Shown in pieces: positions 2,420 through 5,014 of a DNA stretch of 7,004 bases (its first letter is position 1; each line of letters begins with the position of its first letter). Position numbers and translations under genes: made by a program. The stretch lies in IMG/VR virus record IMGVR_UViG_2713896784_000026; one strand, written 5' to 3'. This DNA comes from a virus (lineage: Duplodnaviria; Heunggongvirae; Uroviricota; Caudoviricetes). The notes beneath the pieces were generated by a model. That model made no database searches. It saw nothing but the letters and a program-made list of their open reading frames with translations, and had not been told where the DNA came from.

Positions 2420-2638
2420 TTAACGCGGGTATGTAATCATTCTGGCAATGCTTAATGCCGCTGCTTTTTCCAGATTGGTGATATCCTGCTCCAGAGCGGA
2501 CAGATTTTCAGCCTGCTTAGCCCTGGCTTCATTGGCCCATTTCAGATCCTGCGCTGCATTAATTTTCTGGTGCATCCACTCATAAAGTTCATCATCGGTA
2601 TAGTCTGGCGCGATGATGACGGGTTCTCGTTTCTGCAT
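2420..2638 (-). CDS. Hypothetical 72-aa protein; by position (last small gene of the leftward operon before the immunity genes) possibly a Kil/KilR-like host-interaction protein
   Basis: ATG at 2638..2636 preceded by a strong SD (minus-strand reading ACAAGGAGCCGACATG). Codon usage looks strongly coding (CTG, GAA, CAG, AAA, ACC). Predicted helical protein MQKREPVIIAPDYTDDELYEWMHQKINAAQ... The kil-like assignment is by synteny only. Confidence 0.7.
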   Translation of the reverse strand: MQKREPVIIAPDYTDDELYEWMHQKINAAQDLKWANEARAKQAENLSALEQDITNLEKAAALSIARMITYPR

Positions 2639-2730
2639 GTCGGCTCCTTGTGGTTAGCGTTGCCTGCTTTTAACCACGTCAGGCGAGGTGGTATCCTCTG
2701 AGGGGTCTGTTACTCGAGAGGAAATTGGTT

Positions 2731-2931
2731 ATGAATACAATCAAGTTTTCTTGCCCAGAATGTGGTGGCGAAGTCTTTGACACATCCTTTAAGCCGCAGG
2801 GCTCTGACAGTTTCGCGGGAGCCATCTGCAAAAATTGTGGTCACCTTGTAACTGAAGATGAGTCCTCGCAGTTCGATGACGAAATCGTTGACAATATCTT
2901 CGGTGCACTCACCAGAGACTTTCTGAAGTAA
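2731..2931 (+). CDS. Small zinc-ribbon protein (66 aa), C-P-x-C-G ... C-x-x-C-G with an acidic C-terminal tail
   Basis: ATG at 2731 with GAGG 9 nt upstream (2718..2721). Two canonical zinc knuckles, CPECGG at residues 8-13 and CKNCGH at 33-38, then the acidic tail TEDESSQFDDEIVDNIF. The track ORF starts 6 nt earlier at TTG. The minus-strand ORF 2710..3066 is the exact antisense register, which is why it also looks open. Confidence 0.6.
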   Translation: MNTIKFSCPECGGEVFDTSFKPQGSDSFAGAICKNCGHLVTEDESSQFDDEIVDNIFGALTRDFLK

Positions 2932-2977
2932 AGGCGCATACCGCTTAGTTACCGCTCTGATAACTCTTACCTGTCCT

Positions 2978-3024
2978 GCAATGGCGCTGATGTCAATATA
3001 AAGCGCCATTGCTGCTTCTTTGCC
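2978..3024 (+). terminator. Hairpin (11-bp perfect stem 2978..2988 / 3002..3012, 13-nt loop) followed by TGCTTCTTTGCC; candidate terminator for the zinc-ribbon gene
   Basis: gcaatggcgct ... agcgccattgc are exact reverse complements, 47 nt downstream of the zinc-ribbon stop. The T-tract is only moderate and the loop is large, so this is a weak intrinsic-terminator call. Confidence 0.35.
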
Positions 3025-3243
3025 GATCCCGGGATGCCTTCCATTCTGATGTTTGACTTCGCCCACTGAGAAACCCTCTGTTTCCCCTTAACGCCGGGGT
3101 AGCGGAACAAAAAACTGCTGCATAGTTATTAAAGTTGAACCCTGCCGTCATGTTCATACGCCTCGGGCTGGCTACTTAACCCCTGACCACTGCCGGGTAA
3201 CTCGAAGTATTTCCCTGCGTTCTGTGGGGCGGGGTGGGTTGGT

Positions 3244-3290
3244 ATTTTTAGTTTAATAAACATTAAACTTAAGTCAAGTAAAAACTAAAC
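3244..3290 (-). promoter_or_regulatory. pL/oL-like leftward promoter with operator-like sites: -35 TTGACT (3277..3272), 16-bp spacer, -10 TAAACT (3255..3250)
   Basis: The 18-bp site GTTTAATAAACATTAAAC (3251..3268) has GTTTA/TAAAC inverted arms and closely resembles the sites in the 4226..4322 region. A partial second site lies at 3273..3290. Hexamers were read by eye; no TSS data. Confidence 0.4.
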
Positions 3291-3300
3291 CGCGGGACAT

Positions 3301-3339
3301 AACAAACACAACGCTTTTGATAAAGTCGTTGCGGTTGTT
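3301..3339 (-). terminator. Imperfect hairpin just downstream of the parE stop; possible weak terminator of the regulator-antitoxin-toxin operon
   Basis: Minus-strand RNA AACAACCGCAACG - 13-nt loop - CGUUGUGUUUGUU pairs at 12 of 13 positions (one G-U wobble, one mismatch). The U-tract is not immediately adjacent, hence low confidence. Confidence 0.25.
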
Positions 3340-3361
3340 ATGTTTCTATTGGTAGTGAAAG

Positions 3362-3640
3362 TTAGGGAAACTGGCGTCTTGCGTGGATCACGTTTACTAC
3401 TTCAACGCTTGATGTTGTTACGCGGTATAGAATTATATAGTTAGGGTGGGCTACAATCTCACGCAAGCCAGGTACTCTGTCGCTTGGTGGGTATAAATAC
3501 GGATGTTCGGATAACGGCAGCACACAACCCCTTAATCGCTGCCATAAGCGTTCAGCCGCATCTATGTCGAAACGAGCAATATAACTAGTTATATCATCTA
3601 GGTCGGTATCTGCGCTTTCAAGCCATAACACGGGTAACAT
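3362..3640 (-). CDS. parE2: ParE-family type II toxin (92 aa; ParE2-like)
   Basis: The translation from the internal ATG at 3640..3638 (MLPVLWLESADTDLDDITSYIARFDIDAAERLWQRL...YIILYRVTTSSVEVVNVIHARRQFP) has the RelE/ParE-fold pattern. That ATG lies 1 nt after the TAA of the upstream antitoxin gene, indicating coupling. The 124-aa track ORF from 3736 would overlap the antitoxin gene out of frame and is rejected. Confidence 0.85.
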   Translation of the reverse strand: MLPVLWLESADTDLDDITSYIARFDIDAAERLWQRLRGCVLPLSEHPYLYPPSDRVPGLREIVAHPNYIILYRVTTSSVEVVNVIHARRQFP

Positions 3641-3641
3641 T

Positions 3642-3833
3642 TTACTGCTTGCTCCGTTCCTTGCGCATCTTAGCAAAGCGTTCTGCCATTCTGCGCTCAA
3701 CTTCGTCATGGGGAATTGCTGGGCGCGGATCTGCAAGGCTCGTTGCTACTTTCGCACGCAGCCATTCGTTGTAACTGTTTTCTTGTTCAATGGTTTCAAA
3801 TTCAGAAACCATTGGTGAAAGGGCTCTATTCAT
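3642..3833 (-). CDS. paaA2: Small highly charged antitoxin (63 aa), PaaA2-like partner of ParE
   Basis: ATG at 3833..3831 preceded by a strong SD (minus-strand reading CCGGAGGAAACATG). The product MNRALSPMVSEFETIEQENSYNEWLRAKVATSLADPRPAIPHDEVERRMAERFAKMRKERSKQ is 63 aa, matching the length I recall for PaaA2. Sits immediately upstream of parE. The track's longer 81-aa form lacks an SD. Confidence 0.75.
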   Translation of the reverse strand: MNRALSPMVSEFETIEQENSYNEWLRAKVATSLADPRPAIPHDEVERRMAERFAKMRKERSKQ

Positions 3834-3853
3834 GTTTCCTCCGGTTTTATAAC

Positions 3854-4225
3854 TCAGGCGCGGCGGCATTTTTGCGCCGCAATCCATCTCGCTATGAGAT
3901 CTTCCATTGATTCTTTTTTCTGCTTTAACTCGCTGATTATCTGGCGTTGCTCATCCTCAGGGAAGGCTGAAAAAATCTGCAATAATTCCAGTTGATTAGA
4001 CGTTAACCCTGCATGTGGTGGAGAACCCCCCGGTTGTTCTGCGTATTCCGCATCCAGATACCCTTCCGGCATCCCGTATGTTTGCTCTATTCTTCTGGCA
4101 GCCTTTTCTCCAAACGAGGCTCTCCCACTCATTAGTTGAGATAGGTAGCTCTTCTCTTTGGGTGGCAGAGTTTTATCTTTAAACCACTCCTTGAGACGTA
4201 AACGGCGAATTTCTTTTTTTTGCAT
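3854..4225 (-). CDS. paaR2: HTH (Cro/CI-type) transcriptional regulator, PaaR2-like; occupies the prophage repressor (CI-equivalent) position and is first gene of the TA operon
   Basis: N-terminal HTH (KSYLSQLMSGRASFGEKAARRIEQTYGMPEGYLD). The C-terminal part resembles DicA-type repressors (SNQLELLQIFSAFPEDEQRQIISEL). Divergent from the Cro-like gene. Start placed at ATG 4225..4223 (123 aa): the GTG at 4288 used by the track would extend the protein across the operator region. There is no SD before 4225, consistent with a leaderless mRNA. Confidence 0.7.
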   Translation of the reverse strand: MQKKEIRRLRLKEWFKDKTLPPKEKSYLSQLMSGRASFGEKAARRIEQTYGMPEGYLDAEYAEQPGGSPPHAGLTSNQLELLQIFSAFPEDEQRQIISELKQKKESMEDLIARWIAAQKCRRA

Positions 4226-4322
4226 GTGGTAATTATCTTTAGTAATCACTAAACAAGCAAATACTTGACTTAATGGTTTATTAAACACTAAACTCGCAAA
4301 AAAACACTAAACCGAGGAAGGT
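4226..4322. promoter_or_regulatory. Divergent promoter/operator region between the repressor-like gene and the Cro-like gene
   Basis: Three 18-bp sites with conserved right half ...CACTAAAC: 4237..4254 CTTTAGTAATCACTAAAC, 4276..4293 GTTTATTAAACACTAAAC, 4295..4312 (right half only). Rightward promoter: -35 TTGACT 4265..4270, -10 TAAACT 4289..4294, then SD GAGGA 4314..4318 and ATG 4323. Leftward promoter: -35 TTGCTT (complement of 4255..4260), 17-bp spacer, -10 GATAAT (complement of 4232..4237), which puts the start about at the ATG at 4225. Confidence 0.55.
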
Positions 4323-4625
4323 ATGACATTAAAAGAGTTTATTAAATCATTAAGGGTTGGTGATGCTAAGAAATTCGCGGCCAGACTTGGTGTATCGCCA
4401 TCTTACTTATCGCAAATGGCGTCTGGACGAACAGCTATATCTCCAACCCGCGCCCTTATGATCGAATCTGCGACGGAAGGCCAAGTAAGTAGGGCGGAGC
4501 TACGACCCCATGATTGGGAGCTTATTTGGCCTGAGTATGCGAGCGGCATTCGTTTGGGGCAAACACATGTAGTTCATGCTGAAGGTGATTGTAGTGCATG
4601 CTTATCTGATGGAGTTGATTCATGA
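4323..4625 (+). CDS. ydaS: Cro-like HTH protein, YdaS family (100 aa)
   Basis: SD GAGGA 5 nt upstream of ATG 4323. HTH with recognition-helix motif SPSYLSQMASGR, close to that of the divergent regulator. Its TGA overlaps the next ATG (ATGA at 4622..4625). Confidence 0.8.
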   Translation: MTLKEFIKSLRVGDAKKFAARLGVSPSYLSQMASGRTAISPTRALMIESATEGQVSRAELRPHDWELIWPEYASGIRLGQTHVVHAEGDCSACLSDGVDS

Positions 4626-5014
4626 AAATCAAGCATGAACACATCCGCATGGCGATGAATGTCTGGGCGCATCCGGACGGCGAAAAAGTACCGGCTGCGA
4701 AAATTACCAAAGCGTATTTCGAGCNNNNNNNNNNNNNNNNNNNNNNNNNNNNNNNNNNNNNNNNNNNNNNNNNNGATAAAGACACCCCTGATGCTGTTGA
4801 AAAAATGCAGGCTCTGTTACCGGCGATCGAAAAGGCGATGCCGCCTTTGCTGGTGGCCCGTATGCGCAGCCACAGTTCTGAATATTACCGTGAGATCGTC
4901 GAACGGAGGGATCGGCTGGTGAAGGATGTCGATGATTTTGTTGCGTCAGCGGTTGTTTTGTATGACCAGATGAATCGCGGCGGCCCGGCAGGGAATGCTG
5001 TGGTGATGCACTAA
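4622..5014 (+). CDS. ydaT: YdaT-like protein (130 codons; proposed CII-like regulator / toxic when overexpressed); internal 50 bases are masked N
   Basis: MKIKHEHIRMAMNVWAHPDGEKVPAAKITKAYFE...; translationally coupled to the ydaS-like gene. The frame is continuous across the N run only if the masked length is true to the original. Confidence 0.65.
   Translation: MKIKHEHIRMAMNVWAHPDGEKVPAAKITKAYFEXXXXXXXXXXXXXXXXXDKDTPDAVEKMQALLPAIEKAMPPLLVARMRSHSSEYYREIVERRDRLVKDVDDFVASAVVLYDQMNRGGPAGNAVVMH
4725..4774. other. Run of 50 ambiguous bases (N) inside the ydaT-like gene
   Basis: Read directly. Confidence 1.

Follow-up and report, generated by a model that had tools for sequence, protein, structure and literature searches.

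Shared operator sites on both sides of the paaR2 operon in the immunity region of the cryptic prophage CP-933P/Sp12

Why does the same 18-bp sequence recur in two places about 1 kb apart, each time lying across a promoter, in a stretch of prophage DNA that encodes two divergently oriented regulators? The first-pass annotation of the window (the whole stretch of DNA analysed here, 7,004 nucleotides) had taken the two places for an oL/oR-like pair at which a CI-like and a Cro-like protein act on the same sites. A large part of the answer lies in the identity of the DNA. Positions 2940-4640 of the window are 100% identical to the genome of E. coli O157:H7 Sakai (NC_002695.2) and to many other O157:H7 genomes. 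The Sakai record annotates the stretch as 'prophage Sp12, lambda-like phage', with 3854-4225 as CI and 4323-4625 as Cro. It is the immunity region belonging to a cryptic prophage of lambdoid type, called CP-933P in EDL933 and Sp12 in Sakai, which carries the three-component paaR2-paaA2-parE2 locus. The genes and related elements of the region are the following:

1747-1935: DicB (Pfam)
2108-2146: DicF RNA (Rfam)
3362..3640, minus strand: parE2, toxin (Pfam ParE_toxin, E = 1.9e-16; Sakai ECs_2281)
3642..3833, minus strand: paaA2, antitoxin (Pfam PaaA2, E = 1.7e-19; Sakai ECs_2280)
3854..4225, minus strand: paaR2, CI-analogue repressor of 123 aa, start MQKKE, leaderless mRNA (published primer F-1-PaaR2 maps to 4198-4225)
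4323..4625, plus strand: ydaS, Cro analogue of 100 aa (Pfam YdaS_toxin and HTH_3; PDB 8C7K; published EMSA and footprint)
4615-4632: YdaT box, TTGATT-N6-AATCAA, the site of Prolic-Kalinsek et al. 2023 (PMC9986795)
4622..5014, plus strand: ydaT, CII analogue, partly masked by a run of N
Right of ydaS-ydaT: HTH_36 replication protein and IstB/DnaC-like ATPase (Pfam)

For exactly this DNA, protein binding, footprints and promoter repression were published in 2021 (Jurenas et al., mBio, PMC8630535), and 19 of the 19 primers of that study that we tested map exactly onto the window. The repeated 18-bp sites are genuine repressor-binding sites of the CP-933P/Sp12 immunity switch and were already known from that work. 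Reading the sequence by itself is a rediscovery of the published system, with the same DNA, the same proteins, the same operators IR1 to IR4, the promoters PR933P, PRM933P and PL933P and the YdaT box. It brings no new biology, all features of the switch being in the literature already. What it did achieve was to recover an experimentally verified operator system, including the very fragment used in the mobility shift assays. The binding assays and DNase I footprints on 4226-4322 and the promoter fusions that the first-pass annotation had called for were in print, both proteins being found to bind (PMC8630535). By primer mapping, the published fragments correspond to these positions:

4226-4322: EMSA fragment, the 97-bp intergenic region
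4176-4364: DNase I footprint fragment
4225-4298: PR/PRM fragment
3244-3361: PL933P reporter fragment

The sites had been described as three copies of GTTTA-N8-TAAAC plus two half-sites. The match is exact at one position in the left region (OL) and at one in the right region (OR), while the third copy reads CTTTA and departs by one mismatch. The half-site at 4295-4312 indeed consists of the right half only. The other one, at 3273-3290, proved to be more than a half-site, since on the minus strand it reads GTTTA-N8-TTGAC and is a conserved second OL site that includes the -35 element of PL. From left to right the sites are:

3251..3268, both strands: main OL site, exact GTTTA-N8-TAAAC, GTTTAATAAACATTAAAC, covering the spacer and -10 of PL933P, inside the published PL fragment
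3273..3290, minus strand: second OL site, GTTTAGTTTTTACTTGAC on the minus strand, its right half being the PL933P -35; the plus strand (GTCAAGTAAAAACTAAAC) retains the right half alone, ACTAAAC
4237..4254, both strands: operator IR1, CTTTAGTAATCACTAAAC, with CTTTA one mismatch from GTTTA-N8-TAAAC, filling the PRM spacer; published IR1
4257..4274, both strands: IR2, weak, with a recognisable right half only, overlapping the PR -35; coordinates inferred from the published equal spacing
4276..4293, both strands: operator IR3, exact GTTTA-N8-TAAAC, GTTTATTAAACACTAAAC, covering the spacer and -10 of PR933P; published IR3
4295..4312, both strands: IR4, weak, right half only, CGCAAAAAAACACTAAAC, with the half ACTAAAC, CACTAAAC; published IR4

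Allowing up to one mismatch, the window contains GTTTA-N8-TAAAC three times; dinucleotide shuffles of its sequence (n=200) give an expectation of 0.20, and none of them reaches three (0/200). The half-site form AYTAAAC occurs seven times where 1.6 copies are expected, and every copy falls within the OL or the OR region. Both regions are AT-rich (31-32% GC), and a stricter control consists in shuffling the OR or the OL region by itself. With this local composition the two matches in OR (4226-4322) have a P of 0.00035. The single match in OL (3240-3361) has a P of 0.057, which is marginal by in-window statistics, so that the left site needs evidence from outside the window. A possible fifth operator within ydaS (4337-4354) was rejected; it has two mismatches, its equivalent position is not conserved in homologues, and it is probably due to chance or codon-driven. 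No convincing candidate for a third OL site was seen at a spacing of 19-22 bp on either side of 3251-3290; the published description of OL includes a third site (PMC8630535).

Two TTGACT...TAAACT promoters, one leftward and one rightward, had been proposed on the first pass, and both are recovered by a promoter scan. In both, the operator overlies the spacer and the -10, and an operator half supplies the TAAACT hexamer, so that the proposal of a TAAAC half-site doubling as -10 element holds for PR as well as PL. At PL, both hexamers are embedded in operator half-sites. A third promoter had been missed, the leaderless PRM, which has the site at 4237-4254 in its spacer.

3250..3277, minus strand: PL933P, -35 TTGACT at 3277..3272, 16-nt spacer, -10 TAAACT at 3255..3250, leftward to dicF/dicB and the recE-like exonuclease (promoter scan)
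3297..3343, minus strand: strong hairpin, dG -25.1 kcal/mol, z -4.6, between the parE2 stop and PL
4225..4260, minus strand: PRM933P, -35 TTGCTT at 4260..4255, 17-nt spacer, -10 GATAAT at 4237..4232, start at the A of the ATG at 4225 (hexamers read here; start from published 5'RACE)
4265..4294, plus strand: PR933P, TTGACT, 18-nt spacer, TAAACT, rightward into ydaS-ydaT and the replication genes (promoter scan; published 5'RACE and gfp fusion)

The hairpin at 3297-3343 may be the terminator of the paaR2 (immunity) operon ahead of PL. A put- or nut-like structured RNA was looked for downstream of PL in 2932-3244 on the minus strand, where the fold is no better than that of shuffled sequences (z = 0.07) and an Rfam search gave no match.

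The two regulators share the recognition-helix motif noted on the first pass, SYLSQLMSGR in the translation of paaR2 and SYLSQMASGR in that of ydaS, and they align at 35% identity over 46 aa (E = 3e-4). PaaR2 matches no Pfam family at E <= 0.01, helix-turn-helix families included. Its assignment as a helix-turn-helix protein rests on the similarity to YdaS, which matches HTH_3, on the names of PDB entries and on the literature; its N-terminal domain is present in the PDB as 7NKV/8C3K/8C3L under the name 'Phage repressor protein CI'. The protein also lacks a Pfam match to the C-terminal S24 autocleavage domain, in keeping with the reported absence of a peptidase motif and of SOS inducibility (PMC8630535). 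Peptidase_S24 is, however, present in longer homologues that share the PaaR2 head (64-76% identity over residues 1-58). With neither a Pfam match nor an S24 domain, PaaR2 is no sequence member of the CI/LexA family, although the switch as a whole operates in the manner of CI/Cro in lambda. A locus type considered as the O157:H7 paralogue PaaR1 (L081) was discarded, as it occurs only in 19 non-O157:H7 genomes.

The published experiments speak directly to the function of the sites. Both PaaR2 and YdaS shift the 97-bp intergenic region, and in DNase I footprints PaaR2 protects about 78 bp and YdaS 27 + 32 bp (PMC8630535). Four evenly spaced palindromes of 18 bp with the half-site GTTTAGTAA were described at OR, IR1 being placed on PRM and IR3 on PR while IR2 and IR4 are without the left half (PMC8630535). 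Transcription starts of PR and PRM were mapped by 5'RACE, and the leaderless paaR2 mRNA begins at the ATG, position 4225 of the window (PMC8630535). In gfp fusions, either protein represses PR and PRM by as much as 45-fold, and PL933P, which has the same -35 and -10 as PR together with OL sites, is repressed about 100-fold by PaaR2 or by YdaS (PMC8630535). PRM is stimulated by low and repressed by high PaaR2, whereas YdaS favours the PRM side; in solution PaaR2 forms an octamer, in which it was likened to CI (PMC8630535). Binding in vitro required more than 1 uM protein, and the authors, who also saw direct or pseudosymmetric repeats, leave the exact binding sequences open (PMC8630535).

We consider it almost certain that the region of CP-933P/Sp12 is a bipartite OL/OR operator system of a lysis-lysogeny-type switch, with PaaR2 as the CI analogue and YdaS as the Cro analogue. 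The two proteins have similar helix-turn-helix recognition helices, and both bind the 18-bp palindromes, of consensus GTTTAGTAA|TTACTAAAC. At OR (4237-4312) the sites overlap two divergent promoters, PRM for the leaderless paaR2-paaA2-parE2 transcript and PR for ydaS-ydaT and the replication genes. At OL (3251-3290) the -10 and the -35 of PL lie within two sites, and PL is directed toward dicF/dicB and the recE-like exonuclease. According to the published work, occupancy of the sites blocks RNA polymerase at PR and PL, and PRM responds to the dose of PaaR2, from stimulation to repression, with YdaS favouring the PRM side (PMC8630535). A dimer of PaaR2 probably occupies each 18-bp palindrome, the half-site centres lying about one helical turn apart, and RNA polymerase is likely to be occluded because operator halves themselves form the -10 elements of both PR and PL and also the PL -35. 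By analogy with lambda, a PaaR2 octamer might also bridge OL and OR, 1025 bp apart here, in a loop. What the switch governs, in a major pathogen, is the expression of the ParE2 toxin-antitoxin pair, of the division inhibitors DicF/DicB and of recombination genes of the RecE type; bistable expression states also arise from it.

Absence or lack of conservation of the motif in related prophages had been named on the first pass as the outcome that would count against the operators; what we found is the motif at fixed positions in diverged homologues. Searching with PaaR2 revealed 27 genomic loci, with 43-76% identity, and 80 viral contigs. The genomic loci come from Photorhabdus, Xenorhabdus, Arsenophonus, Morganella, Raoultella, Enterobacter, Yersinia, Erwinia, Winslowiella and Acerihabitans and, among beta-proteobacteria, from Mycoavidus, Glomeribacter and Massilia. 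The motif lies, in nearly all homologous loci, at -67/-68 (the position of IR3) and -29 (that of IR1) from the repressor ATG, and one more copy, between +445 and +2293, is seen downstream of the operon. The comparative motif set covers 126 kb from 21 diverged lineages that range from relatives of E. coli to phages of Burkholderia; 53 of its 60 motif matches are located at OR (36) or at a PL-like promoter (17), three of the seven elsewhere adjoining a PL site. The PL-like site is kept in 17/21 lineages although what separates it from the repressor, DNA and cargo alike, differs. The downstream PL-like sites have TTGAC or TTTAC before them and a T after them that completes TAAACT, and in most homologues a second site, GTTTA-N8-TT(G/T)AC, precedes the main PL site at a distance of 22-23 nt. 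The comparison thus points to the second OL site built into the PL -35 as a conserved element.

In an alignment of 18 sequences (A1), IR3 with AGTTTA (the complement of the PR -10 TAAACT), AGTCAA (the PR -35), TTGCTT (the PRM -35), IR1 and the PRM -10 are all invariant or nearly so, and the PRM -10 stays 6-7 nt from the ATG, the spacing of a leaderless transcript. The flanking intergenic DNA has diverged; there is no conservation on the ydaS side, and IR4, which lies there, is not kept beyond the E. coli lineage. Along with the DNA motif, all repressors retain KEKSYLSQL, and their Cro-like partners, encoded divergently, retain S(Y/F)LSQ(M/L). The same triad of sites is found in Klebsiella phage 5 LV-2017 and in Burkholderia phage vB_E177, so that the OL/OR arrangement flanking the repressor operon is kept across the 21-lineage set and these two deposited phages. 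The region is also present, at 98% identity, in Escherichia phage Evi, and at least 120 IMG/VR contigs contain the 20-nt core GTCAAGTATTTGCTTGTTTA. That the promoter-operator core is invariant across distant hosts is a modest extension of the published work; a literature check, which was not exhaustive, found no paper on this conservation of the operators across hosts.

These comparisons also bear on what the proteins actually recognise. The unit could be a direct repeat of the ACTAAAC type, or one of the published pseudosymmetric 'operators', bound head-to-tail, instead of an 18-bp palindrome. Five copies of a 14-nt unit ending in ACTAAAC lie in the same orientation at 3255, 3277, 4241, 4280 and 4299 (repeat family D1), IR2 and IR4 have the right half alone, and both readings were left open by the earlier study (PMC8630535). 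In the diverged homologues, however, GTTTA and TAAAC are both conserved at IR3, IR1 and the PL site, and the consensus, GTTTAKTAATTACTAAAC, is a true palindrome that agrees with the published half-site; this conservation of both halves favours the palindrome, and IR4 as a half-only copy is the one not kept outside E. coli. For helix-turn-helix repressors of this type, binding as symmetric dimers is the norm. We consider this alternative to the palindrome quite improbable. We give next to no credence to a further reading in which the two regions resemble each other only as AT-rich promoter DNA or through a recent inverted duplication of a promoter, the left site having no operator function. In its favour are the marginal P value of OL in local shuffles and the fact that the OL and OR promoter modules are inverted copies of each other (24 nt at 79%). 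Both versions are contradicted by the roughly 100-fold repression of the PL fusion by PaaR2 and YdaS (PMC8630535) and by the persistence of the PL-like site where the intervening DNA and cargo have changed.

Whether the two operators also communicate is a separate matter. Local repression at each promoter, without a long-range PaaR2 loop, would be enough to account for the PL, PR and PRM fusions, each of which is repressed on a separate small fragment without the other operator (PMC8630535), and it would sit easily with an OL-OR distance that, among homologues, ranges between about 0.5 and 2.4 kb. On the other hand, PaaR2 forms octamers in solution as lambda CI does (PMC8630535). Paired sites are conserved at both loci among homologues, and a variable distance is compatible with looping. 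Lambda itself tolerates variation in the OL-OR distance. We take the possibility of two independent operators seriously but consider it rather unlikely.

Starting from the preferred reading, a palindromic operator shared by PaaR2 and YdaS at OL and OR, the comparison suggests a wider one, which we put forward tentatively and which falls somewhat short of probable. The PaaR2/YdaS head and its operator would constitute one immunity specificity with a near-invariant core that extends far beyond E. coli, the same head being mounted either on an SOS-cleavable S24 body or on a short tail shared with regulators of paaA-parE loci, while the slot between repressor and PL swaps its cargo. The hosts may include Photorhabdus, Xenorhabdus, Yersinia, Erwinia, Klebsiella phages, Burkholderia phages and the endosymbionts Mycoavidus and Glomeribacter, and the cargo may consist of toxin-antitoxin pairs, the candidate defence gene PDC-S42 and others. 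If this were true, PaaR2 would be a chimera that puts a toxin-antitoxin pair under prophage immunity control, and prophages of very different hosts would be mutually immune.

Among known switches, DicA/DicC of Qin resembles the present one in that the repressor of a cryptic prophage controls a leftward operon with dicF and dicB, both of which lie left of PL here; by description, it is set apart by another repressor family and other operators. The RacR-YdaS-YdaT module of the Rac prophage of E. coli K-12 (PMC9638921, PMC11879457) has an analogous layout, and its YdaS and YdaT families are homologous to those of CP-933P at 26-31% identity (PMC8630535). It differs in that one RacR operator overlaps the racR coding sequence. 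The repressor of the present switch is PaaR2, not RacR. RacR recognises (T/A)TAGGC-N3-GCCTA(T/A) (PMC9638921), and despite the ydaS/ydaT names Rac-type operators are absent from the window, where TAGGC-N3-GCCTA has 0 matches with up to 2 mismatches.

In organisation, the switch parallels CI/Cro of lambda. The order of PL, accessory genes, repressor, PRM/PR, cro, cII and replication genes is the same, with rexAB of lambda and paaA2-parE2 of CP-933P as the accessory genes between repressor and PL; the repressor mRNA is leaderless in both, the palindromic operators at two loci serve repressor and Cro in common, and the repressor octamerises. In contrast, no sequence relationship of PaaR2 and YdaS to CI or Cro of lambda is detectable, and PaaR2, without an S24 autocleavage domain, is not SOS-inducible. 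OL and OR are about 1.0 kb apart in CP-933P, compared with about 2.3 kb in lambda. There are four equally spaced 18-bp sites at OR in CP-933P (PMC8630535) as against three of 17 bp in lambda, and in CP-933P the operator half-site itself provides the -10 (TAAACT) of both lytic promoters.

PaaR2, the CI-analogue repressor (window 3854-4225), looks modular in build when its sequence is compared along its length. The head (residues 1-58) shares 64-76% identity with S24-peptidase repressors from Yersinia, Erwinia and Burkholderia phages, and the tail (residues 74-119) is 54% identical (E = 4e-17) to that of an HTH_3 regulator found in another E. coli prophage (locus L081, 3392-3850), where the regulator is encoded immediately upstream of a PaaA/ParE pair. 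Since the two parts match S24 repressors on one side and a PaaA/ParE-linked regulator on the other, a chimeric origin of PaaR2 is suggested, one that would link the toxin-antitoxin pair to prophage immunity.

Comparison of the homologous loci showed that the slot bounded by the PaaR2-type repressor gene on one side and by the PL-like operator, the 18-bp motif downstream of the repressor operon, on the other carries cargo that differs by lineage, and that this slot is empty in several other lineages.

Cargo between the repressor gene and the PL-like operator
CP-933P, window 3362-3833: PaaA2-ParE2
L081, 3392-4301: an additional HTH_3 regulator and a PaaA/ParE pair
Yersinia pekkanenii prophage: PADLOC candidate defence gene PDC-S42 (E = 1e-91)
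Mycoavidus: a DUF4236 protein
Massilia: an Arc-like protein
Coordinates in loci other than CP-933P and L081: L019, 3086-4009; L021, 4191-5012; L028, 3676-3936; L109, 3185-3832

The position of OR, the operator region at the divergent promoters, also varies. In the Photorhabdus and Xenorhabdus loci (L002-L008 and L014) its conserved core does not adjoin the repressor ATG but lies 75-375 nt ahead of it (upstream of position 3001), and in L014 tandem repeats are inserted between the two. The leaderless arrangement seems to have been lost in these loci. A further operator-like site with two mismatches, GTTTATTAAATCATTAAG, is present at 4337-4354 within codons 5-11 of ydaS, the gene of the Cro analogue, and forms with 4269-4289 a 21-nt inverted repeat (86%). 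No conservation of this site was found at the equivalent position in homologues, and its resemblance to the operator is probably due to chance.

The approximately 300 nt directly downstream of the leftward promoter PL (2940-3236) are found with 94% identity in many otherwise dissimilar E. coli phages, in which their annotation is inconsistent or absent; among these phages are PPompW, Stx2a-converting phages and several vB_Eco phages. The predicted RNA structure of this segment did not rise above that of shuffled sequences. Two small ORFs follow, the first of which runs opposite to PL transcription. For the region downstream of PL, Jurenas et al. (2021) were likewise unable to assign functions.

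Small ORFs downstream of PL
2725-2931 (+): zinc-ribbon-like, 68 aa, two CxxC pairs, Pfam matches sub-threshold only
2420-2638 (-): 72 aa, without Pfam family

Compared with the Sakai annotation, the two N-runs of the window each represent more bases than their own length, ~138 bases being replaced by 54 N at 2147-2200 and ~83 bases by 50 N at 4725-4774. Therefore DicF and ydaT, the CII-analogue gene, are truncated in the window and its coordinates are offset from those of the genome. The DicF match (2108-2146; Rfam, 51.8 bits) covers only model positions 14-52.

The interval that separates the parE2 stop codon (3362) from the PL -35 element (3277) contains a hairpin at 3297-3343 (-) with a 22-bp stem (∆G of −25.1 kcal/mol, z −4.6), after which comes CCCGCGGUUUAGUUUUU. 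As the U-run does not begin until 8 nt past the stem, the hairpin differs from a canonical intrinsic terminator. It may be a terminator that closes the paaR2-paaA2-parE2 operon in the manner of lambda t_imm. The cargo slot itself, lying between the repressor gene and PL, corresponds to the accessory-gene position that is occupied by rexAB in lambda.
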